The notes under the pieces are model-generated. The model was given only the letters and a program-made list of their open reading frames with translations. It was not told the DNA's origin and made no database searches. A stretch of DNA of 64,000 nt from Bilabrum cf. latius (Eukaryota), in contig OZ237736.1 of NCBI GenBank assembly GCA_965178125.1, positions 1 to 64,000 on the forward strand, in the 5' to 3' direction. The position numbers and the translations under genes were made by a program. Below are positions 16,311 to 64,000 of this stretch, in pieces. The stretch's first letter is position 1; every line of letters begins with the position of its first letter.

Positions 16311-16314
16311 ACCC

Positions 16315-16928: not shown

Positions 16929-19900
16929 ATGTCATCTAGAAGCCTTGGCAGCCATTCGGGTGCTGCTGGTCCTGACAGTGATGCGGATTCCTCAGATATG
17001 CTCGAGGTGCCGTATCTGCCTTCCTTCGTTGACTTGCTGAATGAGGCCACACCAACCATCCGCGACCTTTCGGGCACTTGGGTGCTGGACAGAAGGCCAG
17101 CTGAAAATGACGTTGAACCCAACACACTTGCTTTACCGAAAGGCAGGATGGTTCTGTCGCAGGCAGGACCTGCCTCCGACGTAGAGTCTCCGGCTGCACA
17201 TTTCCAGCTCGAGGATGCACCGAAAGGCCTCGAGTACGATAGGGATGCCATGGATACTGTATTTTCTGCTCTTGGTGTTGGGATGGTGATCCGTGCCGTT
17301 CTGTATCGGACTGACATGAAGCAGCACCTGGTGCATACCCGGACAGAGCTAAGCATGCACGAACTCTCGGTCAACGTGAAGAGAAAGCTTCTTTTGGATG
17401 GACAGTGGCGGCCTACAGAAGATAACGACGGATCTCGATAGCGTTGTTGGAGTGGTAAAGCTGGAGAGGTGATCACTGAAACTGTTCTGCCAGCTGGGCG
17501 CGGGACAATGTTTGACCAGCGCGTTTTAGTGCGAAGGGACTTGCTTCGCCATGATATAGCAGTCGTTCTATCGCGTAGGATTGTGGCATGTGCAACTTCA
17601 TTTCTTCGTCGCTTAGAGACTGATGAGGAACGTCAAGCAGCCGAGGAGGCAGAGCAGTATGCGCGAGCCATGACTGCTCATGCCCTCACTGGAGTGGGGT
17701 AGGCTACGCAGAGATAGAGGGGCGGGAAAGCCAGTAGAAATAGCAAGGTTGGCGCTGGTCCCGGCCGGAATGCTGTTGTTTCGCAGCAAAAGTCTCCTGA
17801 AGAGCTGCAGGACGAGATCACTCGGGCCAGCACAGAGGCTCAGCTGCAAGCTGTGTGTCCACAGTCCACGTCGAGCTACTGCGGGTCTTGGGCAAACGTG
17901 CCTTCCCATGCTCAGTCTGACAATATCGATGGTCTGCTCGCAGCACTCGGCGTGCCCTGGCTGGCCCGCGGCATGGCCGCCTCGGTGGTGATCACCTCCA
18001 CCATGGACCACCGGCGAGGAGCCACTGAGTGCGAGGACCAGGACACGCTCGCGGGGAGGGCCGTGGGCCTACCAGGTGCCGTGCCGGCATGTTTTGATCA
18101 TGGGGAGTGTGCGGCATCGGAGTCTCAGCTCGGTCAAGAAGACACTGCTGGCCCAGCAGCTGAAGCGACACAGGTCGAGGCGGGCGGAGAGGAGGATAGC
18201 AACGAATCAGCTGCAACTGCTGCCAGTGCCGGTGCTGCCACTGGGTCAAGCCCTCAGCCGCGCGTGACTGCCGCCTCTGTAACCGATGGCCCCTCATAGC
18301 AAGGCAGTGTCGGACCAGGTGTGATCGTCACCACGGATGCCAGCAGCTTCGGTTCAGGCACCTCTGCCGTGGTGCTGGACGGCGTGGCAAGGCTCAAGAC
18401 AGGGGATGACGGCAAGTCTACCGTAAGTCGGGCCTGGATTGGGCGCAAAGGGGGTGGTGGGCCTCGTTGGGCACAGGTCAGACCATCGGAGGAAGCCTCG
18501 GCTCAAACAGGGTAGCAGTGGGTCTACGACTGCGCCAGTCCCGAGTGCGATGCCCAGCTGAGTGCCTTGCAGGAGGGGGAGATCTTGATCGAAGTGGTGC
18601 TGCCTGATGACAAGGGGGTCACCATTGACAGGAGGACTCCCTTCTGGGACAATAGACCAGCCATGCTTGACCAGGCCTAGAATGCACGAGCAAGAAATGC
18701 GCTCTGCGAACATCACCCACACGGCCCGTTCCTCGGATTCTTCTCCACGACCACGCTGATCCAGTACCCTGACTCTGGCGAGACCAGGGACCGCGTTCTG
18801 GCCGGGGCTATCGCAGGATCTGCATGGTCAGGCGGGCGCGTTGATGCGTCAGCAGGCGTGTTGCAACGGCCTCAGGTTGTGTCTCCAGACTCCTCCACGA
18901 CCGGTTGGCAGCGGTGCAAGGTGACTGTGGCTCGGCGAGTGAGCGAGTGCACCGACCTGGCAGCAGAGCGGAAGAAGCGACATGAGGCCTGTATCGCGGC
19001 AGAGACAAGCCTACGATTGGCCCAAGAGTAGCTGGAAGAACTAAGAAAGCGAGACTCTGCTGCTCCAGCCTTGGATGAATCGCCTGATGTCGACGGGGCG
19101 GACGAAGATTCTAGAGAAGAAGGGATCGAGCCGAGCAAAGGTGGCAGTGCCACTGCGGGCCAGCTTGGGCTGCAGACTGCATTCCAAGAGGTGGCCCCTC
19201 ATGCTGATGTGAGCGGCCTGTGGGCGATCGACCTCGGGCGCAGCAGGTCACCACAGGCCTTGCTGGAGTCGATTCGTCGGTGTTTTGCCAGTGCTGAGCA
19301 GTTCAGAAAATCCGCTGTATCGGATCCCCCAAGAGGCATGGGTCCTGGGGAGGCTCAGGAGTACCTGGCAGATCTAAGGAAGCTCTCATGCAGCGCTGGG
19401 CCTGGGGTTGACGCGACCCATGCTTCCTAGACTGTATGGTCTGCACTACCAGTTGCTGCCGACCTAGTGCTCGCGGCAGGAGGTCCAGAGGCTCTCCGCA
19501 TGGACAGGGCCGAGGCCTCGGGCGCTCGGTTGCACATCAACGCATCCAGATTCCGCCTCGAGTGCAGGATGGCCAAGTCCACGGTGTTGACTCCGGGCGC
19601 GTCAGGGACTACCTTTGCGTCTATCCCTCCTGTTGCCTTGTTCCTGGACGGTCGCTGGAGATCCGTGCAGGTGAGCAAGCATGCGGGCAGGACCGGTAAG
19701 ATGTGGGTTAGGGCACGCACCGTGTACAAGAAAGCTAGTTTTGGCGACCACGGGCCTGCCAGTGGCGCTGGTGGACCCGATCCGGAGCCAGCCCGTCGTA
19801 CCTCTGTAGGGTCGCAGGCATCTGATATATCGAGCAGCGAGCGAGACACTTAGGACGTGGTGGTTGAGGTGCTACTGCCGATTGCTCCGACGCTGACTCC

Positions 19901-20825
19901 GGCAGTACTCCGGTCCTCTATTCCAACAGATGCGCCGAGTGGCAGTTGCGTGTACCGGGCATCCTCCGGGGTGAAGTTCGCGTCCGCTGGCTTCGCTAGG
20001 CTTGACATGAGCCCCCCTGTTGGCATTGGGCTGCCGGCTCAAGAAGGTGCGGGTCCGAGCGGGCAGGGCGACGAGGCAGCCAGTCTGGCAGCGTGGCCAC
20101 AACACCCAGATGACTACACAACTGCTCCAGCCCTACTTGTGTCACACTTACGCATCCGGACGCCGCCAAGTAGCCACCCACAACGATCTCGAACGTGGAT
20201 GCAGCAGACGTTGCAGCTGGTGCGGGCGATGTAGGTAGATTCGGACTCTGCGCCTCGCCGGGTTATGTATGACCTGCTCGACTCGACTTAGCGGGTCTGG
20301 GTCCGTGACGAGTCTGAAGAGCAGCGCAGGGCGGGGGAGAGCGCCTGGGTGCAGCAGGAGCGGGAGTGGGAGCAGCAGAGGCAGCAGGCCATCCGCTAGA
20401 TGGAAGAGGAGAGAGAAAAGGAAAGAGAAGAGCTGTTGCAGCACAGGGCCGAGCCATAGGTTTTGACTCAGCCAAAGGGAGCTGCATCTGAATCTACCAG
20501 CGATGCTGACGTCGATGTGGGGTGGTGCGGCACAGACCTGGTGGTGCGATGCGCGATCCTACTGCTGTGCCTGGCCTGGTCTGCAGCAGTGCTTTGGCGG
20601 CTGCAATCGGCACCGCACTCACCAGCAGACAACCACTCTGATGTATCAGCGTGGTCCGCGTGGGGAGTGGGTTCTGCTGGAGGTTTGGTCGCGTGGGGGC
20701 TTGCAGAGGGCGTGTGGCCCACCTGCAGACGACGGTGCGCAGCCCACGCTGCCGAAATCGCGCAACAGAGAAGGCAAAATGGCAATGGATCGAACGCAGC
20801 AGCGGACAGAGGTTCGATTCAATGA
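16929..20825 (+). CDS. ~1298-aa protein with three lipocalin/FABP-like GxW modules, a coiled coil and two C-terminal TM segments (TAG=Gln)
   Basis: Eight listed ORFs in one frame separated only by ~13 TAGs; motifs DLSGTWVLD, YCGSW..SDNIDGLLAALGVPWLAR, DVSGLWAIDLGRS; ends TGA. Confidence 0.8.
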
Positions 20826-21133
20826 AGGGGTTCCTTCGAGACCATCCCAAGTTTATTCGCCATGTGGAGGGTGTCGCCATCGCGCTAGCTTGTTCGATCC
20901 GAGCTCGCACTGGAGCGGTACAACCACGACATTTGTGCCAGAAGTTACAGTTTTTATTTATGGTTAAACAAACAATGGCATTCATATTTGGTCGCCACTT
21001 TTTTGTGCTACAGTTTTCCGGTTTGATGACTGCCTCCGAAGTAAAAAAAAAACTAAAAACGCAACCGCATTTTGCCTCTCTGCATCCAAGAAGCCCGAAA
21101 GCGAGCAAAGCCGCTGTAAATCATTCTGGTCCA

Positions 21134-21820
21134 ATGCTGGCACCTAGGGAGAAACTCTGGAGCGTCGATCCTACAGTGCTGGAAGAGGCACTAAAGCTGC
21201 TAGATTTAAAATCGGACGATGTATTTATGGACCTTGGTTGTGGGAACGGGAAAACTGTGGTAGTGGCCCACACGACTTACAAATGTCGCTGTATTGGAGT
21301 TGAAGTGCACGAGCCTAGGGCCAAGGAAGCCGCAGCGCTAGTTGAAACTGCCTGTCCGTCCGGCGAAGCCGTAATTCTCACGCAGAATGCCCTCGAGGTG
21401 GACTTGCAGAAGGCCAACAAAATATACCTGTATTTAATAGAGCGAGGATTGCGAGCAGTTGCTGCTCGGCTGGAAGAGACGGCACGCACTTGCCAAACGG
21501 AATGGCCGCGTGAAGTCCTCGTCGCCACTGTACTCTACAGAATCCCGCTGCCGCACTGGAAGCCAGAGACGGTGAAGTGGATCGAAACAGAGCGTAGAAT
21601 AGCGGGAGATGGAAAGGAGACGAGTATGAAAATGAAAACCCCCATATTTTTGTACAAAATCCCGAACGAGAAAGAACGAGAGGCAGAAGTCTTGGTAGCA
21701 AGCGACGCATCCAGTTCCAAACCTCTGCCTCATGATGCTGAGTAGAGTCAAGCCGCGGCCGGAGGCTGTGGCGAAGGCATGGCTGGCCCATCCGGGTCGA
21801 GTCCAGGCGCTTCGAAGTGA
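21134..21820 (+). CDS. Class I SAM-dependent methyltransferase (DOT1/FAM173-like)
   Basis: DDVFMDLGCGNGK motif I, CIGVE motif II; TAG at 21743 read through to TGA 21818. Confidence 0.85.
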
Positions 21821-21956
21821 TGCGGCGCCCACCAGGCGCTTGTTTTGGCTGGTCCGATAAGGAAGTCCACAGCTCGAAACTGGCCTGCAACGCATATAAT
21901 ACACGCAGGAAAGATTGGCTCTGCCAAGGCTAGACTTAGGCATTGAGCCGCGAGCC

Positions 21957-23206
21957 TCACGCCGTTCGGGGCGCTCCCCTGTATGACGCACGGGCAGCGT
22001 GCTGCATGCTGCGAATGGAAGCCTCCACCTGGTGGTTGGGGGCGGTGGTGTTTGGTGTCAGCGGCTGGTTCATGAGCGTGTCCATGAACCACTTGACTGC
22101 CAGGGTTTGGGAGCCCAGCTTGGAGGCGAAGGCTGGCCCGTCCACCCCGAACCAATCCCAGCAAGCCTTGGGGTTGGTCAGTGGGTTGCCCTGTGCCTGA
22201 GGGAACAGCACAACAATGTTATTCGCATCGGCCCATGGCAAGTATCCGCCGTGCACCACATACTGCTGCCCGATCAGTGAGCTGTCCATCTCGCATCCAT
22301 GAAAAGCCACGTGCAGGGCGCACTTGATGTGCCCGCCCGAGCACGCCTTTGGCACATACACAAACCCATCATCTCCCAGACCAAGGGTGTACGCAACCAC
22401 AGAGCCACCGACGAAAGCAGCCTGAGAGAATGTCACCAGCTCTCCTTCCGGCTTATACTAGACGCCCGTTGAGTTCGTCGGAGGGGTTAGAGCGTTGCCC
22501 GACAGGTGCTGCAGGGCTGCTCCCGCGGCATCAAAACCGCAGTCATTGATATAAGGTTCTCCGAGAAAATCGCACAAGCTTCCGTAGCTCTGCGTGATCT
22601 GCGAGTGCTCGCCGTCTACATTGAACACCTCCTTCAACTGCTTGGATGGATCCCTCAAGAACGGCTGGTAAAACTGGCCCGCCTTCTGCACGACGCCAGT
22701 CTCAACAACAGTGTCATTGAGAGCAGACATGATCCAAATGCGGTCATTGGCAATGTTGCTGAGATCGTCAATGAATCCACTGATCGCAGTGGCCTCCGCA
22801 ATATGTTGCAAGAAGCCGACATCAATAAACTGCGAATGAGGACCACCGCGAAGGAGTCATTGTGGGATATAGTCTTTGAGTAGAATTCGCGCGTTGATGC
22901 AAGGAAAGGCGCCAGGCTCACCTCTGGGTTAGTCATGCAAGACGTCACCGCAATCCCTACCAGGTCTTCAGAGCACCAGTAAGGGCCTCCAGCAAGAAGA
23001 CCCGCACCGCGGAAAGTTTTGGAAAAAGCGACGTGCATCTAACCGGCCATGTAGGCACCACTGCTAATCCCAGAAACATCAACCTTGGACGAATCGATTG
23101 CGACGGTGGGTAGGCTCCCTGGTGCAGCTGCTACGGACCATCCGAGCAAACCGATAGCAAAAAATTTCAGATACTACGTTTGAACAAGTCGGGTAACTGA
23201 TAACAT
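21957..23206 (-). CDS. Secreted PHB depolymerase-family serine esterase; intron 22830-22921
   Basis: Signal peptide; VSGISSGAYMAG[TAG=Q]MHVAFS, AGGPYWC, LHVAFHGC, NNIVVLFPQA, NPKACWDW. Confidence 0.92.
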
Positions 23207-23354
23207 TTGCTCAAGCGGTGTGGAAGGGCTCGAAGTCTTCCACGGTGAGAGTCCCATCATCACGCATCGTACATCTGCTCGATTTCAGAACTAGCTCGTT
23301 ACAATATAATATATCAGACGACTTGCGAGGAGGACCAAATCTCCAAAAGAAGGC

Positions 23355-25193: not shown

Positions 25194-28048
25194 ATGATGA
25201 ATAAGTGGATAGTATTTGGTATGCTTCTTGCATCTGGCGGAAGCATGCTCGTTTCGGGTATGCTCGATTTGCCAAGGCCGGTGGAGCTAGCAGTCGTTGC
25301 CTCAAGTAAGTTGCCTTGGTCATTTACGACTCCATTCCAAATATCATGCACTCAAGTTGCATATTTGGAAAGCTCTTCGTGGTTCTCGCAGCTTTGTGGA
25401 TCGGTCTGTCTAGCATGCTGCTTCTGTGCTCTATGGCATTGCCGAGATTCCTCCGTTTTGTCCCGCCGTCCATTGGGATATATATTGTGCGCATGGCATC
25501 CTACCAGTCGGTTCTGGTGGATTAGATGAATAACGCCGTGAAGGATGGCGTCATTCCACGCAATTTAGCCTCTGAAGATATTGCTCTGTCACACCCGCAT
25601 TGGAGGCGTGAGCTGGAGGTATTGCGCGTCGATTCCAATCAAGGCTAGTATGCCCTGCGCCGACCAGATGTAGCGTCATCAAAGGGAGATAGGCTGCGAC
25701 TTGCTATACTGCTATCTTCTGGCTTGTTTCAGGCCTATCGTGGACGGCCATCTGGAGCAATTGCCAGCGCAGCTGCAGCCGTAGGAGCTTCGCTCGGGTG
25801 GGGGGCAGTGGCATTAAGTTTGGAGTAGAGGCGTCAGCAATGGGTAGAAATATCATGTAAGGCATTCATAATGGCACGCCCAGAGTACCTCCAGAGCATG
25901 TGCGACTTCCTTGCGCTACCGGCCTTCTGCACTTCTCCCCCTCTTGCCTCTCGTCCTCATCCTGTTGCAGTGCTTGTTGCCGCAGGGGTATTCGGAATCG
26001 CGCTAGCGTGCGCAGCATCGTTCATGGCAATACGAAGAGAGGTGCTGGAGGCGTTTGTGGCAGACGCAGGCCACCTGTCAGCACGGGAGCGCATGCAGCT
26101 CGGTGTGGGTGCATTCGAATCAGCCGACGAGCCGCGGGGCTCAGACGAGTCGTCGGCAAACTAGGAACCACAGGCGAAGACAAGGGCGGCGGTTCTTCGT
26201 AACCGACGCCGTCATCGCAGCCGGTCCAGGAGGGCAGGATCTCGAGGCGTGGGTGCCGCTGACACGGTCGGGGTGGACTCTGTGGCGACGGTTGCACGCG
26301 GCACGGCTCTCCTCGCGATGGGTGCCCGGGGTCTCTCGCAGGTCGAGGGAACCGCCCACAGCATTGGCGATGACGTGGTTGCGACTGCGGTATCTGGCCG
26401 ACTGCATGCTGCGACTCTGGGATTTGCCGCGGTCCAGCAGAATCGGTGCGACCTGCTGCACGAGGGTGATGGAGATGGGCAGGACGGCGACAGGGCGGGC
26501 CTCGGCCCCGGGGACAAGAGCGAGGCAGGGTCCTACAGCGGGTCCATGAGGGAGGGGTCGGGCGTTGACGTGCGGTGGGTGGACTGCGGACAGCGCCTTG
26601 GCAGCGACCCGGATGCTCTCGCGGCGCAGTGGAGGCTGCTGTGCCGGGATCTGGTCGCATCAGCGGTGGTGCATCCGCTGGTGGAGACGTGCGAGCTAAT
26701 CGCCCACGAGTGCAGAAGGACCCGCAGAGCGATCAAGGATGTCCGGGCGGAGGTACCGCACGTGTCGTTGCACTTCCTGCTGTGCGATTAGAGTGCGCCC
26801 GCGACGATTGAGGACAGCAGCAGCCAGCACGCTGGGCGAACTCCGGGGCAGCTGGGTACCTACTTCACCAAGAAAGCCTTGCCTGCCTTGATGAAGCTGT
26901 TCGAGGACAAGAGAAGGTTCTATGCTCCGGACGAAGACGGCCGATTACTCGCTGTTGGAGGCGGAATGACGGTGCCTGCAGTCGGCCGCGCTGTATTGGG
27001 GCAGCTGTCGCAGCCCGGGAGCAGCGGAGTGGCATCCCTGTGGGACATGCGGAAGACACTCCTTGGATTGTGCGTTCCACCCACAGCCAAAATGTTCCCA
27101 GGTTATTGCGTGCGAAGGCTGAGGGAGCTGGTACAAGAGAGGCGGCTGTCTTAGTACGTGGGGGACGGGGGCGGCTCTCACCGCGGCAAGGGCTGGAGCG
27201 ACGACCTGCCCACGGATGCCGAGCTCTGCCTTAACACGATATTTGGCGTGCTGGACCAGTTCTTTGCATCCAAAGCGGAAGAGAAAGAGCTCAGCGTCGG
27301 GATACCGCGCGGCAAGCAAGGCAGGCTCTTCACTGACGCGTTCGTGGTGACCCCTCAGTCGCTCGACACCGAGACCCTAGGCGACAGGCAGCTGCCCCTC
27401 ATCGAGGTGAGGCACTCTCGCCCACTGGACATTGCGATTCGATTCAATGGACGCGTTTTTCTACTGGCAGATCCAGCGGCGGGGTCCCGGACTGGTGCTG
27501 GACCCGGCGGGCGCCGATCGGAGCGGGAGATGCTGTTCAGGGCGATGGGTGTTTTCTTCGGCCTGGTGCAGTCTGCACTGCGGCTGGGACAGGCGAGCCG
27601 CGGGCATGGACGCCCTTTGCGACTGGATGGTCTGCGATCAGGTGGACTCGCTGGGGGGGACGAGGCAGGGCTCGGCCTGTCGGGTGTGCGCGGCCGGGCA
27701 GGCAGACGGGCCACGAGCAGGCCCAGGCGGCGGGCGTCTCGGGGCCGCTCCGGAGCGCAGCGGGGCTTCTTAGGAGGCAAAGGGGTGGCCGATACAGCGA
27801 GGCACGGCGCGACTGTGCGTGTGTCCGAGCTTCCCATGCAGCACGGGGTCCGCTGCGCGGTGGATTTTGACAGAGACCTTGAGTTCTTGCGATTGGCATT
27901 CGGGTGCCTCGTCGATGTAGCGGAAGGCATATCGAGCGGTAGCAGCCGCTCTGGCGCAGCTTTGAAGCAGTCGCGGTCCAGCGGCGGCGTAAGAGCACCC
28001 ATAGGGGGGCTCGAGGGTGGGTTTGAGGACGACTGGGAGGTGTTCTGA
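25194..28048 (+). CDS. TMEM209: TMEM209/PNET1-like nuclear envelope protein; intron 25306-25391
   Basis: N-terminal TMs; YCVRRLREL...LS[Q]YVGDGGG..GKGWSDDLPTDAELCL..F..LD; single frame broken only by TAGs; TGA stop. Confidence 0.75.
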
Positions 28049-28188: not shown

Positions 28189-29367
28189 TTACACCATTTC
28201 CTGCTCTGGCACCGGGCTGCCGCCGTTCGAGCGCCGCAGTGCCAGACCCTTCCTGCTCTGGACAGCCGCTCCTGGCGTGCCAGCTTCTCCAGCGCTGCTG
28301 TCGTCCTTTGCAACGGCACCACCAGGAGACGTCCAACAGCCTCGCTTGCTATTCGCTTGCACGTACACCCCCAGTGATACCAGGCCAAGCCCGGCGATAT
28401 GGCTCAGCGAAATGGCCTTGGGGAATAGCAGGAACGACAGGGCAATCGTGACTGCCTTGCGAGTTGATGTGACAAAGACAGTCATCGCACTATCCGTCAG
28501 ACTTATGAGTGCAAGTATGAAGTAGTATCCGACCCAATTCGTAGCTGCATACGCAACTATGGCCCCCACGATGAGTGAGACTCGGCGAAGGTCCCACTCA
28601 GGCTACCAGCGCGCTGCCTCCGCACTTTGCGTGTCATCAGCCTCGGCATGGCGGCCCCCCACAGTCGACATACTTGAACTCTGCTACCAGGACACAATAG
28701 TTTGGACCCCTATCAAGCACGTGGAGAAGACCAGGCTCCAAGCTTGCGAGTAAGTCGACGCCTCGAGATGGGTGGCTCGGTACTCGGTGAGCAAACTCTC
28801 CTGCAGATTCCCTAAAAATGCATCGCAGACCAATGCCGTGCTAATAATGGCGAATCCGTACGGAGAGCTCGTCCCAGCAGTGGAATCTGCCCAAGCATAG
28901 AGGCCCAGCCCGCCAATTAAGCACACCGCTGCAAGGTATCTACCGAATGGAAACTGTTTTCGGTATAGTATGGCTCCCACCAGCATAACAGGTATAACCT
29001 TCGATGATTTGCATACAATCTAGGCCGGGTACGACAAGTATAGTAACGCTAAATTGCTAAACTGTGCGGATAACAGATTTAGAGCTCCAACCGCAGCGTG
29101 CTTCGACAACGGCGCCCTCCTCTTGTTGAACCCACCCAAAAATAAAGACCCTACGACAGTCACAAGAGGGATAGACATAGCGAGTATAGCAGGCTGCCTG
29201 AACTGCATTTCGTTGATGACAAATTCCTGTGCAACCGAAGCCGTGAGATACATCACGTATATGCCAGCTGCCGCAAATAAAACTCTAAGGTTTGGTGGAA
29301 CCCAGTCAAGCGTTACGCCAGCCACCGAAAATTCGTCGGGTCTGGCGGCATGAGGAGCATTTGCCAT
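28189..29367 (-). CDS. UAA-family nucleotide-sugar/PAPS transporter (SLC35B-like)
   Basis: YLSYPA[TAG=Q]IVCKSSKVIPVM, DAFLGNLQE, TSTRKAVTIALSFLLFPK; ends EQEMV-TAA. Confidence 0.93.
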
Positions 29368-29604
29368 CAGGATAGTAGTGCGCGGCGAGTGGATAATGCA
29401 AGTGTCTATTGCCCAATCATCACATCATGATGCACGCCGCGACTGCCACTGGCAGTGTCAGCTGTCCGTCTCACTGCCAGAGCTGCCTTCTGAGTCTTCA
29501 TCGTGCTGGTCATCCGAGGCATCATCATCGTCCTCGTCGCTCGATGCGCATGATCCAGAGTCGGAGTCGTGCTCGGACCCTGGCAGGAAAGGGACCCCGG
29601 GAGC
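29259..29604. repeat. Direct repeat copy 1 (paralog at 33913-34219)
   Basis: Shared atatgccagctgccgcaaataaa ... ggaaagggaccccgggagc with indels. Confidence 0.93.
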
Positions 29605-30377: not shown

Positions 30378-30825
30378 CTTGTACGACCGGAGTCCAATAA
30401 AAAATATGCAAACGCGGCGCTAGAGCGTCAGTCTACCGCGACGACGACTCGCGACTCGGAGTCGCGAAGCATCAAAGGTACACGCAACAAAATGTGACTT
30501 CCCGGCTCCGCACCTGTACGCTTTCTCCTTGTGAAGGCAACAGTCTGGGGGCCTGTGGGGGACCACACTGATGGCGAAGAATGGGAACTCGGCGGCATAG
30601 GCTGAGAACGGGGGGCCTTTGGCCTGAAAGGGTCGGGGGTCTTGTAGTCCTTTGTTTTAGGGCTCCTCTGGATCTAGGTGATCACTGATCACCCAAACCC
30701 CCTCGGGGGCGACGGTGCATCTGGGTGCTTACGGAATCTTTACCCAACAATGTATTTCTGTATTTCTGTATTTCCGGCTTGCTTGTTCGGGTCAGTTTTT
30801 CGCTTCCCGCGAAGCGAAACGGGCT

Positions 30826-33764: not shown

Positions 33765-33912
33765 GGCACTGTCTGCGGGGTAGACTTAGTGTGATGTCTG
33801 CCATCGGAGTTTGCAAATTGGCCGATGCAGAGCAATGGCGCTTGCACAAGCAGTGGCTTGTGAAAAAAATACTGGCTTGCTGTTGTCGTGAGATTCATTC
33901 CGTAAGTTTTGG

Positions 33913-48205: not shown

Positions 48206-49014
48206 CAGCAAGCAGTCAGATTTGCTGCTTATCCTAGAAGCCTCCTCCTGGACGATGCAAAGTTGTGGTTCTGGCGACCACAGTATTGGCAGTGCACTGC
48301 ATCTCCAAAAAAGAAAAAACACGATTTGCTATCCACATTCGCGACAGCCCCGTCCATCGTATGATTCACGGCACCTCTTAAACGTGGGTACGCATGGCAT
48401 CTGCAAGTGCAAAGGCTGCGGTGGACAGGCCAGACATTCAAAAGGCGCTGCAAAGTGCAGTGAGCCAATCGCTTGCAAAGCTGCGGTAGCAAGAGATCGG
48501 TTCGCCTCCCACTGCAGGGGCAGCAATACACAATGGACTACCGATAGATGTAGAGGCTCGCTCCAGTGGAACGACCGGCTTAGGCCGGGCGAGCGCGCCG
48601 GCGGTTCGATAGCAGCGCGCTATCGTTGTTGCTGAGCCAGGCGCCACGATACTTTGGGGGGCAAGACTCATTTGGGGAACCTCAACGTACCAATTGGGTA
48701 GGTACTACTCGTATGCAGAAGCTCGAACGGCATTAGATGCTGCTTTGCTGCATGCAACGGCACAGCATGCCAGCATTGCCAGCAGGGAGGCTGGCGAAAC
48801 CTCCGATCGCCGAGCTGCCGCGGGACCATCACATCCATTCGGAGGCGTGTTTGCCATTCGAATACCAACCCCGGTGGTTGCAATCGACTTAAACGTGAAA
48901 TGAACTCAGACTAAAGTTGACTGTGTGTGGATCAGAGAAAACGTGTGCGACTGCTTTTCACACCATTAGACCTCTTGAGCTGACCCAAACTGTTTGTAGG
49001 ATTCATGGCTGCCT

Positions 49015-50766
<1,752 letters not shown>

Positions 50767-52986: not shown

Positions 52987-53376
52987 TTACCGCAGAATAC
53001 ATGCGATTTTAAGCTAGATTTTAGAGCGTGCGCGTCTCAGACCGACTCGATCTGTGGCCACGTGGCTCCTCACATCATCTTGGCTCGCCGCCTCCATTCG
53101 GTTGGCCAGCTCGTGATAGTTTGTGAATGCATACGAGGAGAGCGCACTAATCGATTGGATATCAACAGAGGATCCATCTCGGACGCCACAATCATGCAAA
53201 CGCTTGCTGTCTGGTAGCCTAAAGCCGCCAGAGAGAAGTGCAAACCGTCCAAGCGCTTGGATGCCATACTTAGCCTAAATTCTTGCTTTCAGTCTAGCAA
53301 CGAGGTCGTATGCTTGGCAAACATACTCCTCTGCGGCTGTTTCACTAGATCCTGGGTGCCTTACAATTACCCGCAT
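52987..53376 (-). CDS. Ubiquitin-like domain protein (may splice into the downstream gene)
   Basis: MRVIVR..VARLKARI[TAG=Q]AKYGI..GFRLPDSKRLHDCGVRDGSSVDI; ends TAA or uses a GTAAG donor. Confidence 0.7.
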
Positions 53377-53521
53377 CTTACACGAAAGGGGAATACTGCC
53401 GCGTGATCCAAGATTGATTCGGTTGCTAATGCTGAAGATGAAGATACTCCGGGCGACGCGACGCCGTGGTGACCAGACCATCACCGCCGGGTGCCTGTAT
53501 ACCACTCTAATCACGATCGAT

Positions 53522-54664
53522 TTACACTGAACCTGTTGGGGCGCACTTTGCCTGGCCTGAATCGAGATGAGCCCTTCCGCGGTACACGGTCGTTGGTGGC
53601 AATACGCGAAGCAGGCAGTCCGCCGTCACGCTCAGGTAGTGCTTGCCGGGAGCGGGTTCGATCACGCTGGCCCCACGCAAGGTCACGGCGGCCCCCAAGT
53701 CCAAGGCTCTGCCCGCCTCAGCCACTGCATCCCTCTGCATCCACGCGACCATGGACTGCCCGCTACCGTCCACGAGCGTGCACACGGTGCCGTGGGGGCC
53801 GTGATGCATGGCAGCCACTGCGCACACCAACACGCCGAACCGTCTTCCGTGAGCTCCTCTAGGCCGCTTTGCAGTGCGAATCACGTCTCTAAGCATCTGC
53901 ACGCCGCTTCCACCCGGTCTTCCGCCGGCAGCATCGAGCGGGGTACCTGGCGAAGGCCCCCGCCGCAGCAAGCCCCACTCTCCACCACTCACGCCCTCCA
54001 TTGATTCGAGCCACGCACCAGACCGATAGAGAGGCGAGAGCAATCTGTGCGAGTGGCCTGCCAGTGGGGGTGGGGTGTCCGCGCAGTGGTCTCGCCCAGG
54101 CGTCGTGCTCGACAGGAGTGCTGCCTCCGCCTGGGGCAATGAGGCTTTCTCTGGCGAGATTGATTTCGGACTATGCATCAGTGAATTTGCACGTGTTGCC
54201 GGGCCGTCAGTCTTCGAGCTGCCTCCCCTGTTCATGGGTCTAGGAGGAGATGCCTCCTGCTGATGCTCTCCAATGCGCGACGGAGCCTCTGCGGAGCTAA
54301 CTATGATTCGCGCAGGACTTTCTGTCCTGCGTTTCTTCTTTTGCTGCTACGACTCTGCCGGACGACGTGCGAGTGGCACATCTCCTGAAGTGCTAGAGCT
54401 AGGGGCGACGCCAGATTTGGAAGATGCTGCTGATCCCTACGTGTACTTGAATCGTGCAGATTCTTGCGGACGTGCACGTTTCAATGGAAGCACATTGATC
54501 GGTTCGGGCTCTACACCTGCCTACATGTCCTCCTTGATGACTTGCAAGGGCTTGCGGACTCCCGTTGGCTTTGAATCGCCTGCCAAATTATTCGAGGCGG
54601 ACCACGAGAGACTCTGCGAGTCCATCGACAGGCTTTCAACGTCCGGAATATCTAAATCATCCAT
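53522..54664 (-). CDS. HROB: HROB/MCM8IP-like OB-fold protein (DUF4539)
   Basis: TLVDGSG.SM.AWM.R..V..G..LDLGAAVTLRGASV..P...HYLSVT..C+LR+; frame extends through TAGs to ATG 54664; TAA stop. Confidence 0.75.
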
Positions 54665-54806
54665 ATTTTCACACTATGTACCAATTGACGTCCGAAATCT
54701 GCCCTCTTAAGACGATGCACGATGTTGTGAGCAGCTGCTGCTTCGGAAACTCCGAGCCAGCCAAATAACCAAAGGCTTGTAGATCGCTCAAACGGGCTTC
54801 ACAATA

Positions 54807-57644
54807 TCAATCGACCCCATATTTTCTCAACCACAGCCTTGCGGCCGCCCGCTCTTTTTCGTTTTCTGCCATCTCTCGCTCCAGCTCTCGCTTGCGTTCA
54901 CGAGCCTGACGAGTCCTGCCTGCGCCGCTCCCAAAACGGCTCAACTCATCTCGGACGGCATCATGCTTCTAGTTCAGCTACAAGAGCCGTTTTTCGACAT
55001 CTGCAGAAACCAGTGAGGACCTGCTAGCCTGCTACGCTGTGGTTGCGAACGGCGCGGCTTCCTCTCGGGCTGCAGCAGCACGCTCCTGCTTGAGCTGCTT
55101 CTATCGCTCGCTTTCGCGCTGCTGCGCAGCCCCTTGCATTCGTTGCAAGAAATCGGCCGTGGCGGACTGACCGCTTGTTGCTTGCCTGCTATCGCTGCCA
55201 TGCTCCTGCCTGGGCTGTGAAGAGCTGACCGGGAGGCTAGGAGGGGCATGCGCTGCCTGTTCAGCCACCCTCTGGCGTTCTTGCCGAATCGACTCCAGCA
55301 TATCGCGCCTGGAAGGAGACATTGGCACACCTTGATCCGTATTTGGCGGCAGGCTCGGCCTCGTCGCCTGCGCCTGCAGGTATCGCGCCCTGGCGGCCAG
55401 GAGCGGGTCCTCCGCGCCTGAGCCTTGGCCTTGGCCCGCACGTGCACCGGTACCCGCGGTGGGGTCTGGACCGTGAAATTGCCTGGGGCTCGCTCTCGGG
55501 GGAGAGGCTGGCTCGAAGTAGGCCCCTGGGGACTGCGAGGCGCGGGGCATGGGGGGCGCTCTGAACTGCTGGTGCTCCGGCATCGGCGGGGGCTGGACGG
55601 ACCCTGAGTTCTGGTTCGGCTGCAGCTGTGGAGGAGGGTATGAGCCGATCGGCAGCACGCCAGTGCTTCTAGACAGCTGTGAGTAGTCTACCTGCTGCTG
55701 GCCGTGTGCCTTACTTGCAAAGAGAGGTGCTTCGTCAGCGGCGTCCGCTACAGGCCGCGGCCCGAGGCCTGGTTGCTCCTGGTCGTATGACAAGCGTCCC
55801 AGCGGGGCCTGCTCCAGACTTGCCGTGCCAGCATGTTGCCCCGTCGGCGCGCTGCCCTGCTACTGGTCATTACCAAACCCGCCGCTGCCGTTTTGGCGGG
55901 AGGGAGGTCCACCCGGGCTGCCGCCAGAGCTCCCAAGCAGCGACCCAACCGCGTCCTGCTGAGCTCTGTGCCCGGAAAAGTGACGCGGGGGCGGAGAGGG
56001 GGGGCGAGCCGCGCTCTCGCTGTGATGATGCGCAGAGACGCGCTCTGTGCCCTGAAGGGCGTCCCCGGGGTGGTGGCCGGGAAATCTCTGCATCTGGCTC
56101 GTGCTCGCGCTCTAGTTGATGGAGAAGCGCCCATCGCTGCGGGTGGACAGTGTTTCATTACCACCCGAGGGTCCCCTTATCGCGGTGGCATGCTTGGCTC
56201 GCGCTGCCTCGGCTTCCGCCTGCCGCGCTGCTGCCTCAGCAGACCTCAGCTTCCGCTTGGCCACCTGCAGTTGGTCCTTGAGGTCATCCAGGGAGGCCTC
56301 CAGGCGAGCCACAGTCTGCTCGGAGCGCTCGGCCCGTTTCTCCGCAGCCGCCAGCTCCCGTTTGGCCTGGGTGGATCTGCCGACCTCTTCCTGCAGCTCG
56401 AGGCGCAGGGCGGCAAGCTCGCTCTTGTGCTGTCGGTCTTGGTAGTCCGCCTGCCGGGCCTGCTCCGCCCGAGCAGCGCCAGACACACTAGGCTGTCCCT
56501 ACCCCTACCCATGTCCCTCGCCGACCATAGTGCCGCGGTGGCTGCCAAGCACAGGCTGTCCCGCATGGCCTGTCCCTGCCTCTACCCGCAGCGGCGGCCC
56601 ACCCTCTTCGTTGACTCCTTCTAATGCTTCGCCCTACCGTGCTGCTGCTGCTGCTGCTGCCTGTCCCTCTCCCTGTCCCTCTCCCTCTCCCTCTCCCTGC
56701 CCTCGCGCCTCCCCTGCAGCCTGGGCCCGCTCCTCTGCGTCTGCCAGCATGTCCCGCAGCTGCCGGGCCTCCTCCCGTGCCCGCTCCAGATCAACGCGAA
56801 GGCTGCCTTCAGCCCCCCTCGCATCATCCCCGTCCTCTCCCCCTGCCTGCACCTGCGCCCGCGCCCGCGCCAGCTGCTCCTTGAGTTCGGTCACCTGCTG
56901 CCTGCCGCGGTCTGCCTCCCGAGAGAAGTCCTCGGCCCTCCGCTCTGCAAGCCTCAGCCGGTCCCGCAAGTGCTCCTCCTCCAGCCGACGAATGCTGCGC
57001 TCACGGTGCACCTCATCAAGCGCCGACTACGATTTGATCTTCAGGGACTCGATGCTTGCGAGCATGGACTGCCGCTCGGCATGCAGGTCCTCGACGCGCC
57101 GGGCTAGCACATCCGCTTCTTCCGCTGGGACCACTGGGCGCGGCGGGCGGTGAGACATCACGTCCGGACTCTGTATTGCTCTCGACCCAACCATATACAG
57201 CGACGCATCTGCATCGCCTGGACTAGCAAGTAGCGACTCCTCATTATTGGGACGCTCGCGCCTGCCACGCTTTCGTGCCCGCCCGGTCTCACGATCAGAT
57301 TCATCGGCTGATTCCAAGCCTGAGTCTCTAGAGTAGCCGCTTCCGCTCGAAGAGCGAGATCGCGATCGCTCCGACCTTCGTCTGCGCGACGCAGCACGAG
57401 TCCGACTACTAGATCGCTTGTGGCGTGCCGGGAAGTTATTGTCTCCACTTGCCGGGATTACAGGCAAGCCAGCAGACTGACCAGCCATCGTATTGTCAGT
57501 TCCATTGTGAGGCAGCCCCTACTATCGAGGATAGCCCTCGAGGTTGACAACCGTTGGCCTTTCGACGCTGTCTGAGACGTGGCTTCTTGTATCGTCACTG
57601 TCGTCGCGATCGAGGCAATGCCAGTCGATAAACTGGCTCATCAT
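54807..57644 (-). CDS. Coiled-coil protein with an MPHOSPH9/enkurin-like C-terminal helical domain
   Basis: Five listed ORFs in one frame joined by TAGs; C-terminus APFAT..VEKRLLQLNQKHD..ELSRF..GRTRQARERKRELE..ARLWLRKY-TGA. Confidence 0.7.
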
Positions 57645-57840
57645 CTATACTATTTATAAGAAAAATGCGTGCTCTACGACGTTGAAGAGCTGTGTCATGC
57701 GCAAACACACCAAATTCGAGGTTGGCGAACCTGCCGAGGAAGGTTCCGAAGCTGAACCTGGTCTATTTCATGTATTACCTACTTGGGGCTTGAAACCTGG
57801 CATGAACTAGTAAGCGTTTTTATCATCAGTCACCGTTCAG

Positions 57841-58184: not shown

Positions 58185-58985
58185 TTGCTGGTTCAGCACT
58201 GCTCTCGTACTACTGAGAAGCTGCGTGAATCGCACAGGAAATGCAAACTACCTGGACTGGGGTACATCGTGGAGTGATACGGGTAGAGCAGAGTTTGAGC
58301 AGCGGTGCAAGTGCCACTCAGTGAGGTCGGCCCAGCCTAGGCCAGTTCGCGTCAAAGGGGCCTACAGCATCCGAGGCATTGCATGATGGTCCATCAACTA
58401 TTCCTCAAAGCCAGACATCGCATCAAACTCAAAATGTATACTTCAGTCTGCTCTGAAACGAATATCATCTGCTGCCGTGACTGGCCGCTTGTTTCAAGTC
58501 AGCGAGCAAGTACTTGACTCCTCGCCGGCTAGCAGCGGGGCATTCCTTCCCGAGGCACCGCCACCGTCCGGCCCACAAAGGGCTTCTGCCCTACCAACAA
58601 GTATGGGGGCGTTATTTCAGAGTATGGATGGCTTCGTTTCCCTATACGTGCGGCAAGGATCCCCCCCTTGAATGGAACGCGCGCAGTGGGCTCCGCTTTC
58701 CCGCTCGCCGCGGAGCCGTATCGAGGTCCCATGCACTGCGCGTGATGACGCAATCAACAATACTTGTAGTGGGTGGCCAGAATAACACGACATGACAACA
58801 ACACGGATAGTGGCAGAACCATCGTGGTCAATGTGGGGCCAGGCGTCTCGAACCCGGAGCAAATTCACCACTTGCGACACCAGACATCCGAGTGTCGAAT
58901 AATCGCGTTAGGTGGGAGACTAAACGGGCAGATTGTAAGGTTTGTCCTATCGATTTTTCTTTTGTAGCGAAGAGCACATACCACC

Positions 58986-60674
58986 ATGGCCAGTGAACGA
59001 CTAGGTAAGCCTCCATTCAATGCAATTCAAAGGATCGGTGAAGGAGCCTACGCTACAGTTTGGAGCGCCTCTTGGCGCGGTAAAATTGTTGCCGTAAAAG
59101 AGTTAAAACACGATGTGGCCAGTACGCTCGATGATGCCGTCGCCCTTCCCGAAATTCGGCACCTACGTGCGATGGGCGGGGGTAGCGATGACATGGTTCG
59201 GCTCCTGCAGGTCGCACGCCTCGATGGAACTGTATTCATCATAATGGAGCTATGTGACTCGTCTCTATTGGATGTACTTCAAGCAATGGGCGAGAGAGGC
59301 CAGCGTCCCAGCGAAGAAAACGTTCGGTGGGTGATGGCTCGGCTTTTACGAGCTCTAGCGTTCATGCATTCTCGCGGGGTTTTGCACAGAGATATAAAGT
59401 CAGACAACATTCTGTTGCAGACAGGGGATTCCAGTGGAGGTCTGACAGGAAAGACAGCGGTTGGGAGCAAGCTGGCGGACTTCGGACAGGCAACGTCAAC
59501 GGCCGCGGTCCCGAAGGGAAAAGGCCTCACTCCGTATGTCGGGACACGATGGTATCGTGCGCCTGAGCTGTTGCTTGCGCCCCACGTCCGAGCTGGCAGC
59601 CGGTCTGCATTTTCGTACGGCCCTGGCATCGACGTGTGGAGCGCAGGCTGCGTCATGGCGGAGCTGCTGGCGGGCCGCACGCTCTTCCAGGGAACAAGTG
59701 CCTTGGACCAGCTGAATCGATATGCACACGTACTTGGACCCCCTTCTGAGTCCTGGCCTGCGTCCAGTCGCCTAGCAGAGGCATGCGGCCTGGCGCTGCC
59801 CAGGATCAAGGGGGTGGGGCTGGCGGCGGTGCTGAGCAAGGCAGGGGTGCGTGTGTCTGCCCAAGCAGCAGCTGCATGCGAGGCACTTCTCACTTGGGAC
59901 CCAGCGAGGAGGCCCAGCGCTACAGATGCCCTCCGTCTGGGTTTCTTCAGGGGTGGTGCAGGCGACCCGCTGGTGCTGTGGCCGCGGTCCCAGTCTGCGG
60001 CCGAGTCGGCGGCTGCTACTCGGGCGGCCCGCGCGCTGCAAGCCAGGCTGGTGGCTGCTGCGGGGGCTGCGGGGGCTGCGGGGGCTGCTGGCAGCAAGGC
60101 AATGGGGGGGTCTGGGAGCACCGCTGCAGCTGGGGCACCCTCGTCCTCATCCGAGGGAACAGCGGGGGCAGCTACTAGTGGTCGGCCGCGAGCGGATTCC
60201 CTCAACTCGGCCGACTCGCTGGAATCAGAGGCCGACGCAAATATGTAGAGGTCAACCAGTGGTAAACACGCAGCTAGTGCTGGAGTTGGGAGTGAAGATG
60301 CAGGTGCAAAGCTCGGGCTGGTGGGCACTGCGGGTGACAGTGGCGCAGGGACGATGCCCTCGACTGCTGCACCTGGTCGCAGGTCGAGCGGGCTAGGCCT
60401 GGCCCTGGCACCATCGGCCTCCATTGCCAGCGGGAAAGGCTCCACACCAGCTGCACCGGGGACTACGAGCCAGAGAAGCCCTGCAGCGGGTATTGCTGAC
60501 AGTGGCGTAGCCGTGGGTGCGAGGGGAAAGAGGTCTGGTTTGGGGCTTGGACTTGGACTTGGGGCTGGTGTGGGCGGGCGATCGGCTGCAGATCAGCCCG
60601 AGCAGGATGATTATGTGCCTTCCTTCGTGTCTGGGGAGAAAAGCGGCGGGAAGCGATCTGGATTACTCGGGTGA
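58986..60674 (+). CDS. CMGC Ser/Thr kinase, MAK/ICK (RCK)-like
   Basis: GEGAYA, VAVK, HRDIKSDN, DFG, TPYVGTRWYRAPE; TAG at 60246 read through to TGA. Confidence 0.93.
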
Positions 60675-60816
60675 GTTGCTGGACAGGCACTGTCGGGAAA
60701 CCGGAATAAACAGCAAACAGAGGCAACACCACCAGGCTTGAACACCACGCGAAACTGCGTGCTACCGCAAGGGCACTGTATATTATTGCACAGTACTTCC
60801 GGGATTAAATTCTGAT

Positions 60817-63800
60817 ATGTACAGCGTTACATCGCGCGGGCAGGGTAGACTGTTTGGACGATTGGCCAGCATGGCCGGGTTGCATTTTCGTCGTGTTCGT
60901 CTGTACAGTCATGCATCAATGGAGACATCCAAAAGCACACCCGTGCAAAACTTGCGTCTTTTCAATGGTATTTATCACACTGGCGACCCAGTGTCCTCTA
61001 GATTAGACGGTGCCGACCGTGGTGGACTACGAAGACCGCTCCACAATGAACACGGCTCACCTGTTGCGACTGATAGGCAAAGGCTCCTTCGGAAATAGCT
61101 CTCGCTTGAGCTTGAAAGTGCCGAGAAGGCAGCCATGAAACTTGCCGGGGTCCAGGCGGAAGTCATGGATAGAGGACACGGCTCCGGTTTGCATCGTGTC
61201 CGAAGGCAGTTGGTCAAATGGTTTCCAGGGCTCACACGCCGAATCGAGGCACTCACCGCAGAAATGGTTGGGCCGCGGGCCTCTCCTGCCCGTCGGGCGT
61301 AGGGCGCTCACCTCTTGCTGGTGAGCAGCGAGCGCCTATCTGCTATCGCTCTGCACGAGGTAGTGAACGCTCTCCTGGCGCAGGGGGGCGCCGTGTCTGC
61401 CACAACGCTGTGCGCCGACATTGGCGAGCGGGTGCAGCTGGAGGCCCAGCTGGGTCGCGTGCGACGGGTTGACAAGCGAGCATGGGACGCTGCCAAGCGC
61501 CGCCTGTCTGGACAGCTGTCAGCACGGGCCGTGCAGCAGGTGCGGCGGGCGCTCATGCAGTCTGCAGCTGCCGACGAGTGGCCCAAGCAGCTGCGGGTGT
61601 AGGTGGGCGCTGCCCTGCTGCAGTGCGTGATGCAATCCTGTCGCGTGGGGATCCATAGGACGGGCGTGACTGCCGCAGTGCGGTCGCAGCTGCTGCACGT
61701 GTCGCCTACCGTGCGCCCGTGGACGAATGAGCAGGGAGCCTCGAGGGTGAGGGCGGTACTGGGGCTGCTGGACGAGTGCGCTGGCATCGGGCTGGGCGTC
61801 AGTGAGGGGGAAGAGCGAGCTGCGGATGCCGCCGCGCACAGCTTGATTGGGCAGCACCGGTCAGAGGGCCTGGGTGACGACGACACTGGAGATGGGCGGA
61901 CCGTAGCCATCGGGCACTCCCCCTCACTGGCAGTGGTGAAGGCCCTATTCTCTGAGCCCCTGTGCTCTGCAGAGGCCTCCAATGGCTCGAGCGCAAGTGA
62001 TTCCCCCGAGCCCGAGCAACAGCGGCAACAGGAGGCTGCTGCGGGCGGCAGAACAAAGAAGAGGCAGCGCTCGGCCGCGAAAGGGGTCCGCGGAATTGCG
62101 CTCACTGCATCGGAGGAAGACTTTGTGAGCACATCGTTGGCTGGCCTCAGATCTCTGCTGCGGAGGCCCCAGGGCCAGGTGGATGTGCCTAGGCTGTCAG
62201 AAGCAGACCCATCGGGTGGTGCAGGCGATGCCGAGCCTGGCGACGGCAAAGGCAACGGCAGCGGTGGGGCGATGCATGCGGTCGCGGGTGGTCACGAGTA
62301 GGAGGAGGAAGAAGACGAGGATGCTGTCATGTTTCCGGCACTCTTGCATACCTATCGGTTAGCCCCTGCACGCGGCACCACCACGATGCAGGAGGATATG
62401 ACGGCGGGGGAGGCCGGTCGGCTGAGCGCGGGCAAGCTTGTGGTGCAAGGTATCGTGCGGGCCAACCCGGCCCTCTTGGCCGCATTGCAAGGGGCAGAAG
62501 TAGAGGGCGCCAACCCAAAGCAGTTCCCCATGGTGGTCCCTCCGCGTCCCTGGGCTGGGGTGAGGGAGGGCGGGTACCTGCGCCTCAAAGTGCCCATCGT
62601 GCGCCCCAAGCTCGGCAGCAGGTCCTCGCTGGGAGTGGCAGAGATGGCCGACATGCCGCAGGTGTATGATGCGCTTAACGTGCTGGGCGCGCAGGCCTGG
62701 CGGGTGAATCCATTCGTGCATGAAACCATGCGCAGAGCCTGGGAAGGAGGCGGCGGGCTGGCGGACCTGCCTCCGAGGGCAGACCTTGAGCTGCCTGAGC
62801 CACCCTCTCCACCTTGTGGCGATTCGGATGCTTCGGAAGATGTCGCCGAGGCATTCAAGGCAGCCAACCAGAAGTGGAGGAGGCAGCTAGGCAGGGTCAA
62901 GAGGTGGAATAGCAACCGGCACAGCCTCCGCTGCGACCTCACTCTCAAACTCGCGCAGGCCAAGGCGATGGAGTCGGACGCGTTTTGGTTCCCCTACAAC
63001 ATGGACTTCAGGGGTCGCGTGTATCCAGTGCCGCCGCATCTCAACCACATGGGCTCCGACATTTGCCGCGGACTGGTCCAGTTCGCGAGACCCAAGCAGC
63101 TCGGGGACCGGGGCCTCTACTGGCTCAAGGTGCAGCTCAGCAACCTCATGGGCAACGACAAAGCACCGCTGGACGAGCGGGCGCAGTACGCAGAGGACAA
63201 CCTGGCCAGCGCCATGGACTCCGCGGATCGCCCATTGGATGGGAATGGCTGGTGGCTCGAGGCCGACAGCCCATGGCAGGCCCTTGCAGCGTGCCAAGAG
63301 CTGACTCAAGCGATGCGCCTACACGATCCGACGCAACACAGCTGCCCGCTCCCGGTCCACTAGGACGGCTCCTGCAACGGCTTGCAGCATTACGCCGCGC
63401 TTGGGAGAGACTACGACGGCGCTGTTGCTGTCAACTTGGTCGACGCGGATCGACCGCAGGACGTGTACTCACGGGTGCTCGATCTCGTTATTAAGCGCAT
63501 TGAGAAAGATTCCCATGCTGCCGCTAGTGCTGCCGATAGAACGGCCATGGCGAGGTCCGGTCAAGGTGGCTTTGCTGCTCCAGTGGCAGATGCAGTTGCA
63601 GTGTATGAAGAAGCCAACCGGATCGAGTCGAGTGGCAGCATTAAGCAGGCTTAGAAAGTCCGCAGTGGCATCATCGATGAGTCGACCAACCCAATGCAGC
63701 TCGGAAGCTCAGATTAGCAATGGAAATTCGACAGGGCATGTGCCAAGTTTGTTCGAGGACGTGTCGTCCGGAAAACCATCAAATAGACTGTCATGACCAG

Positions 63801-64000
63801 CGTATATGGTGTGACGTTCATTGGAGCTCGGGAGCAGATTCGCAATAGGCTAAGAGAAATGGACTGGTCTTCATACGGAGACGTGGATACAACTGATAAA
63901 CTTGTCTCCGATTCCAGCGCTTATCTGGCTAGAATAACTTTGGAGTGTTTAGGAGAAATGTTCAGCGCAGCAGATTCTATCAAAGACTGGTTGACTACAA
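60817..64000 (+). CDS. POLRMT: Nucleus-encoded mitochondrial T7-like RNA polymerase (runs off window; start 60817 or 60871)
   Basis: [22 protein letters not shown][TAG][21 protein letters not shown][TAG][10 protein letters not shown]. Confidence 0.97.

Follow-up and report, generated by a model that had tools for sequence, protein, structure and literature searches.

The window, by which we mean the whole stretch of 64,000 nucleotides analysed here, comprises positions 1 to 64,000 of contig OZ237736.1 (assembly GCA_965178125.1, deposited as Bilabrum cf. latius). Beyond a subtelomeric repeat array, the region from 16.8 to 64 kb carries tightly packed, intron-poor nuclear genes, and nearly all of them contain the codon TAG in frame. 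The position and turnover of these codons make it highly likely that TAG is a regular sense codon for glutamine (Gln, Q) in this nuclear genome. The genes and open reading frames (ORFs) concerned, with their in-frame TAG codons and the expectation value (E) of the best family match where there is one, are as follows.

16833..20825 (+): 1,330-codon ORF that matches no Pfam family; TAG occurs 13 times in frame, TGA end.
20642..21820 (+): DOT1-like methyltransferase ORF; 1 TAG (Pfam PF08123, E 4.6e-08).
21957..23284 (-): extracellular short-chain polyhydroxyalkanoate/polyhydroxybutyrate (PHA/PHB) depolymerase with a catalytic domain of type 2, divided between two exon ORFs (NCBIfam NF050059, E 5e-66 and 9e-22).
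25310..28048 (+): 912-codon ORF that matches CytochromB561_N weakly; 6 TAG.
28189..29424 (-): SLC35B-type nucleotide-sugar/UAA transporter; 3 TAG (Pfam PF08449, E 2e-43).
30682..33764 (+): GH31 glycosidase with a PAN domain, in two exon ORFs in different frames; TAG at 31192, 31852, 31945 and 32398.
34065..36959 (-): repeat protein with a coding repeat of 48 bp x 10.7; 6 TAG.
37285..38874 (+): ELP4/PAXNEB homologue; 4 TAG, TAA end (Pfam PF05625, E 2.7e-13).
39275..44815 (-): USP-type deubiquitinase (DUSP and UCH domains), 1,846 codons in one frame; 19 TAG, TGA end (Pfam PF00443, E 1.4e-56).
45383..48667 (-): ZNF598-like RING protein; 9 TAG, with a cluster of 4 in 7 codons at 45571-45591.
49015..50076 (-): beta-tubulin exon of 353 codons; no TAG, acidic tail followed by TGA (Pfam PF00091/PF03953).
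53119..53382 (-): ubiquitin-like domain; TAG at 53275-53277 (Pfam PF00240, E 8e-05, below the cut-off).
53522..54706 (-): HROB OB-fold protein; 4 TAG, TAA end (Pfam PF15072, E 7.9e-08).
54807..57653 (-): coiled-coil protein of low complexity; 13 TAG, two of which (56501 and 56507) lie where the sequence is rich in G and Q.
58749..60674 (+): Ser/Thr protein kinase (Pfam PF00069, E 2.7e-49); of the 3 TAG in the ORF, 1 comes after the first methionine.
60742..63999 (+): POLRMT, the mitochondrial phage-type RNA polymerase, truncated by the end of the window; 8 TAG, at 61096, 61300, 61600, 62299, 63361, 63652, 63715 and 63784 (Pfam PF00940, E 1.3e-87).

TAG occurs in 16 of the 18 ORF segments that have family or homology support, 98 times in total, and the two segments free of it are the beta-tubulin exon and the second exon of GH31. 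Some of these codons are located upstream of the first methionine and may belong to untranslated sequence, as is the case for two of the three in the kinase ORF. When 15 ORFs with a total of 12,030 codons are counted, the reading frame contains 93 TAG and no TAA or TGA, the two zeros being partly a product of construction, as these two codons served to delimit the ORFs. In the two remaining frames of these ORFs, TAA occurs 52 and 47 times, TAG 94 and 110 times, and TGA 170 and 271 times. The in-frame rate of TAG (0.77%) is the same as its off-frame rate, and there is therefore no selection against TAG in coding sequence. Runs free of TAA and TGA extend to 1,846 codons, a length that cannot be due to chance when the two codons have a frequency of about 2% off frame. 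The longest single frames have 1,846, 1,330, 1,094, 1,086 (cut by the window's end), 964 and 948 codons. Reading through TAG raises the number of ORFs of at least 150 amino acids from 115 (26,789 amino acids) under standard stops to 173 (48,955 amino acids). These ORFs agree with complete domain architectures, and none of the single-exon genes needs a frameshift. An earlier reading made from the letters of the window, hereafter the sequence-only reading, had held that nearly every gene is broken by in-frame TAG only, and that intact motifs without frameshifts in essential genes argue against pseudogenisation; the counts bear out the first statement, and the frames of the single-exon genes together with intact catalytic motifs bear out the second. 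The six sites that it singled out all turned out to be in-frame TAG codons: 63361 and 63784 in POLRMT; 29020-29022, 23039-23041 and 53275-53277 on the minus strand in SLC35B, the depolymerase and the ubiquitin-like domain, respectively; and the site in the coiled-coil protein.

The use of TAG is spread across sequence contexts. The base that follows an in-frame TAG is C in 34 cases, A in 26, G in 23 and T in 10, with no fixed context, and TAG sites are found in conserved and variable positions alike. TAG accounts for about 16% of the Gln codons in the ORFs of the window. In the beta-tubulin exon, on the other hand, Gln is written as CAG in 15 of 15 cases, with no CAA and no TAG. Because beta-tubulin writes all 15 of its glutamines as CAG, TAG appears to be a minor codon that is avoided in highly expressed genes, as suggested by this one gene. 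The possibility that the TAG codons are contained in tiny introns was considered and rejected, since the alignments are colinear and TAG stands in a conserved Gln column.

A second copy of one of these genes provides an independent view of the same codons. Scanning metagenome contigs with the C-terminal half of POLRMT returned one locus (L001), which has 5,879 bp, a guanine-plus-cytosine (GC) content of 50%, and a best segment that is 73% identical. A full-length POLRMT orthologue occupies a single frame of 1,216 codons in it; TAG occurs 20 times in this frame and makes up about one third of the Gln codons. Over 963 aligned codons the window and L001 proteins have 67% amino-acid identity, and nucleotide identity by codon position is 0.70/0.81/0.34. 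Among the 648 identical residues, 417 are written with different codons. Synonymous sites are thus saturated, while purifying selection has preserved the protein over the entire gene, through each TAG and beyond it, so that neither POLRMT copy is a pseudogene. One TAG is common to both species, at the POLRMT motif B site. Of the 20 aligned sites with TAG in just one of the two species, 12 have CAA or CAG in the other, about 5% being expected (P = 1.6e-11); if the sites are limited to those at which five or more of the six flanking residues agree, a Gln codon stands opposite in 10 of 11. This is how a codon behaves that interchanges synonymously with CAG and CAA as species diverge, and the second species shows the same code as the organism of the window. 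On the opposite strand of L001 (approximately 4400-5879, minus) lies a CXC (tesmin/TSO1-like) cysteine-rich gene that also contains in-frame TAG; the code change in L001 would therefore not be restricted to POLRMT. No relatives of USP were found among the metagenome contigs, and none of POLRMT among prokaryote genome contigs.

The identity of the amino acid can be approached through the columns in which TAG falls. In POLRMT, the column of 63361 has Q in 99 of 120 homologues and that of 63784 in 118 of 120; the TAG columns of L001's own have Q in 119, 111, 78 and 118 of 120. For SLC35B, the word-based homologue search gave only one match, and a structural alignment was used instead (PDB 9grz/9gry): the TAG at 29020-29022 is placed opposite Q113 of human SLC35B1, which is the residue mutated in the deposited structure 9gry ('Q113F'). 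The depolymerase TAG at 23039-23041 lies just past the GISSG lipase box, opposite a Q of the solved Penicillium PHB depolymerase (PDB 2d80). Log-odds were then summed over the TAG columns of the POLRMT, GH31 and USP alignments, with the POLRMT TAG columns of L001 included. In the 29 of 38 columns with an occupancy of at least 50%, Q scores +13.2, followed by A (-22.9), S (-23.1), D (-26.7), H (-27.5) and E (-29.0), and Gln is the sole residue whose sum is positive. In the 14 columns with an occupancy of at least 90%, Q reaches +16.3 and the next residue, H, stands at -17.1. The claim of the sequence-only reading that TAG sits at family Gln positions is strongly upheld for POLRMT, SLC35B and the depolymerase; of the other two examples, the ubiquitin-like site is a weak one, facing E in FAT10, and the sites in the G/Q-rich repeat (56501 and 56507) are uninformative as to residue. 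A database fragment of 287 amino acids (P0149), 69% identical to GH31 residues 263-545, has Q at one TAG site of the window, GH31 site 391, and E at another. It may be a piece of a protein from a third relative, truncated by gene calling under the standard code.

The two other stop codons behave differently. The Gln-type codons of POLRMT in L001 are CAA 25, CAG 18, TAG 20 and TAA 0; if TAA also meant Gln, at the share that CAA has in the CAA/CAG pair, finding no TAA among 20 would have a probability of about 3e-8. The same gene has TGA directly after the conserved C-terminal STYFFS, with a TAG 6 codons ahead of that end. As this TAG is read on to the TGA, proximity to the mRNA end does not keep TAG from being read there. 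Of the 17 ORF segment ends in the window, 13 are TGA and 4 are TAA, two of the TGA ends being ends of exon ORFs within introns, and the acidic tail of beta-tubulin ends with TGA. Among these 17 ends, all of ORFs cut at TAA or TGA, no gene was seen to need TAG as a stop. In this code, UAG is Gln, and UAA and UGA, as judged from the DNA, are kept as stops, UGA being the commoner; TAA is not used as a sense codon. The restriction to TAG that had been proposed from the letters alone is thus seen again in L001 POLRMT (20 TAG, no TAA) and in ORFs that close with TGA or TAA.

In the mechanism that we propose, UAG would be decoded by a tRNA-Gln with a CUA anticodon, which pairs with UAG and not with UAA. 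The CUA anticodon has been argued to be the only one able to read UAG while ignoring UAA (PMC5304391). In addition, eRF1 would have lost recognition of UAG while keeping that of UAA and UGA.

Several observations weigh against this assignment. The codons are known from DNA alone; ARAGORN and Rfam detected no tRNA genes, whatever their type, in either the window or L001, and the eRF1 gene is located outside both. The zero counts of TAA and TGA, as mentioned, come in part from the cutting of the ORFs. Many TAG columns carry little information on the residue, and in USP (26 homologues) Q is the commonest residue in none of the 19 TAG columns, all of which are variable or gapped and so uninformative. 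Individual sites also point to other residues: GH31 site 573 has H in 101 of 150 homologues and Q in 21, GH31 site 422 is opposite the E of P0149, the ubiquitin-like TAG is opposite E in FAT10, its best solved match (a weak case), and the one remaining conserved one-sided site of the 11 has TAG in L001 opposite AAG (Lys) in the window. Finally, the lineage discussed below comes from one gene tree with 24 named rows, and the group used to test it was named after the tree had been seen.

The sites opposite E, H or K in relatives are what would be expected if TAG were a sense codon without being a clean Gln codon, that is, if it stood for another residue (Glu, His or Lys), were ambiguous, or combined Gln with a context-dependent stop as in Condylostoma or Blastocrithidia; cutting ORFs only at TAA and TGA would also hide any TAG that is a true terminator. 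This is nevertheless improbable. The summed log-odds favour Q (+13.2) over E (-29.0) and H (-27.5), a Gln codon stands opposite 10 of the 11 one-sided TAG in conserved neighbourhoods, and in L001 the TAG placed 6 codons before the C-terminus of POLRMT is followed by the conserved end and TGA, so nearness to the end of the mRNA makes no stop there. The ZNF598-like protein has four TAG at 45571-45591 (minus strand) near its C-terminus, followed by a Lys-rich tail; read as Gln, they form a short Q-rich patch. It is the sole place in the window where TAG could conceivably act as a true stop.

Even less probable is the standard code with U-to-C editing of the mRNA, turning UAG into CAG. Editing predicts the same DNA pattern of TAG at Gln positions, but it would require site-specific editing of about 0.8% of nuclear codons (93 in 12,030), and the TAG sites turn over freely between the two species, unlike sites bound to editing factors. 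We know of no nuclear editing system of that kind. We give hardly any credence to an artefact, either systematic C-to-T miscalls at CAG or faulty assembly. A single transition does separate TAG from CAG, and the window comes from one assembly. But the same TAG pattern recurs in L001, which was assembled separately from a metagenome, belongs to another species with 50% GC, and has mostly different TAG sites plus one shared; this argues against an artefact of a single assembly. Moreover, CAA as well as CAG stands opposite TAG, beta-tubulin retains CAG at 15 of 15 positions, and sequencing runs of three further studies contain 52-93% of the sampled 31-letter words of 54800-63999, these figures being shares of words and not single sites. 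That the genes are decaying subtelomeric pseudogenes with nonsense mutations, as their position next to a subtelomeric repeat array, a common setting for pseudogenes, might suggest, is scarcely credible given that only one of the three stops occurs in frame, without frameshifts and in ORFs of up to 1,846 codons, that essential genes of single-copy type (POLRMT, ELP4) are hit with their catalytic motifs intact, and that the codon-position identities of the POLRMT orthologues (0.70/0.81/0.34) hold over the whole length.

Two proteins of the window give named matches among eukaryotes. POLRMT comes closest to Cafeteria roenbergensis among the named matches (E 6e-92), and the next named one is a fungus (1e-72); for USP, the best named matches are one EukProt entry and an oomycete. 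Beta-tubulin matched only generic tubulin clusters in the Protein Atlas, which are taxonomically uninformative. A maximum-likelihood POLRMT tree was built from 46 rows (24 of them named, with no ciliate among these) and 859 columns, and as such does not test a ciliate origin. The window and L001 are sisters in this tree (100), and the pair is sister to Cafeteria and two unnamed proteins with a support of 94 in the Shimodaira-Hasegawa-like approximate likelihood ratio test (SH-aLRT). Rows that we take to be ochrophytes lie nearby, and those that we take to be fungi and holozoans are found across a branch of 98, all such group labels being presumed. When the pair is forced into the opisthokont group, a group named once the tree had been seen, the likelihood is 91 log units worse and the approximately unbiased (AU) test gives p = 0.0014. 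As far as this one gene indicates, the organism most probably belongs to the heterotrophic stramenopiles, with bicosoecids (Cafeteria) as its relatives. An origin in aphelids (Amoeboaphelidium, in which UAA and UAG, together UAR, are both Gln) was considered and rejected, as TAA is not a sense codon and the AU test rejects an opisthokont placement.

The kind of code is known. Our findings would correspond to the NCBI table 15 type, with UAG inside intact genes and aligned with Gln, UAA not used as sense, and UGA as a stop. The same code, UAG for Gln with UAA as a stop, is described in the fornicate Iotanema spirale (Panek et al., 2017; PMC5304391). The likeness is close, as only UAG has passed to Gln there and UAA is kept as a stop, and in that organism too a tRNA-Gln(CUA) was predicted and not shown (PMC5304391). 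The differences are that Iotanema belongs to the Metamonada and has UAA as its dominant stop (PMC5304391), whereas the organism of the window ends 13 of 17 ORF segments with TGA. As the window contains a POLRMT gene, its organism is not from the Iotanema lineage. UAG alone has also become Gln in the ciliates Protocruzia tuzeti, Hartmannula sinica and Trochilia petrani (McGowan et al., 2024; PMC11687900), in which the same change has arisen repeatedly and independently and TAG is widely used as sense (PMC11687900). These ciliates strongly prefer UAA as a stop (PMC11687900), unlike the present organism, which uses mainly TGA and has about 59% GC and TTAGGG-type repeats; its POLRMT also falls beside a stramenopile, in a tree without ciliate rows. 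The sequence-only reading had called UAG-only reassignment to Gln rare and cited Iotanema as an example. The rarity and the example both stand, and Protocruzia, Hartmannula and Trochilia have to be added to it (PMC5304391; PMC11687900).

Other codes share part of this behaviour. UAR is Gln (the NCBI table 6 type) in many ciliates, some ulvophytes, diplomonads, oxymonads and the aphelid Amoeboaphelidium protococcarum (PMC5304391; PMC11687900). In these, stop codons have likewise been captured by Gln, probably via mutated tRNA-Gln genes, but UAA and UAG are both sense; in the window TAA is absent from the frames and TAG is common, which does not fit a code in which UAA is also Gln. UAG stands for Leu and UAA is a stop in the uncultured rhizarian exLh and in metagenome-assembled genomes (MAGs) of phyllopharyngean ciliates (PMC5304391; PMC11687900). 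There UAG is uncoupled from UAA, as it is in the window, and the residue is Leu instead of Gln; Leu is not among the six best residues at our TAG columns, and its log-odds therefore lie below -29. TAG is also Gln in the 'code 15' of phages and of some giant-virus MAGs (PMC9523058; PMC13524828). The codon has the same meaning in both settings, but those are viral genomes, and the window, with its telomere repeats, tubulin and POLRMT, is part of the nuclear chromosome of a cell. A search of the full-text literature found no report of a nuclear stop-codon reassignment in stramenopiles, a result that leaves out subscription journals and supplements and is no proof of absence. The lineage thus appears to be new for this known kind of code, with at least two species. 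Tentatively, and with somewhat less than even confidence, we propose that this would be the first nuclear code change in Stramenopiles: an independent origin of UAG = Gln in at least two bicosoecid-related species with saturated synonymous sites and different GC contents (59% vs 50%), with UGA as the main stop, unlike the known UAG-only lineages, an eRF1 that separates UAG from UAA and UGA, and candidate hosts for giant viruses of which the genomes are read best with TAG as Gln.

The remainder of the window is set apart from the coding evidence. Its first part is a single feature, delimited by Tandem Repeats Finder and by reading of the sequence.

1..16529 (no strand): subtelomeric array in which blocks of a 155-bp satellite alternate with (CCCTAA)n blocks and with short repeats of 22 bp and 53 bp.

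The (CCCTAA)n blocks measure 128 to 1,081 bp. In each unit of the array, about 1.4-1.8 kb of the 155-bp satellite is followed by a (CCCTAA)n block and this in turn by a 22-bp x4 repeat, and the units recur with a period of about 2.44 kb (telomere-type blocks start at 8038, 10479 and 12926). A 53-bp x4.1 repeat at 16314-16529 stands directly ahead of the first gene. Interstitial blocks of telomere repeats as regular and long as these are unusual. The array, with telomere repeats of the TTAGGG type, marks the window as a eukaryotic chromosome end and lies outside the coding evidence. Beyond 16.8 kb, GC is about 56-62%, and the genome is GC-rich (approximately 59%). No Rfam family of any sort, rRNA genes included, was found in the window. 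A segment of about 300 bp occurs in two copies at a distance of 4.6 kb (29259-29580 and 33913-34193, identity 92-99%) and spans the 5' end of SLC35B as well as sequence resembling the 3' end of the repeat-protein gene; an ORF at 32627-34399 (minus) has the same N-terminal peptide as SLC35B. The depolymerase gene (NF050059), here in the nuclear genome of a protist, is of bacterial type; it extends over two frames, with an intron as the presumed cause, and contains TAG. An ancient transfer, with later conversion to the code of the host, may be its origin. Sequence nearly identical to 54800-63999 is present in sequencing runs filed under four organism codes and four study codes, which contain 52-100% of the sampled 31-letter words of that region (8 rows with at least half), the labels themselves allowing no inference. 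Among the runs listed, none is recorded as RNA, and four rows with shares of 0.06-0.07 were left out of account. The organism may travel with other cultures or samples.

Changes of the nuclear code are rare, and the uncoupling of UAG from UAA, which is rarer still, has been described in a handful of lineages (PMC5304391; PMC11687900). One more independent origin, in another supergroup and in a GC-rich genome most of whose genes end with UGA, would be a data point on codon capture and on the specificity of eRF1, and the availability of two species makes a site-by-site comparison of codons possible. There are also practical consequences: standard gene callers fragment every gene of this organism and its relatives, and their proteins are therefore missing or fragmentary in databases. 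The finding would moreover name a type of host able to support viruses in which TAG is Gln (PMC13524828). It does not introduce a new principle; it would add to a short list and provide a good system in which to study how UAG becomes uncoupled from UAA.

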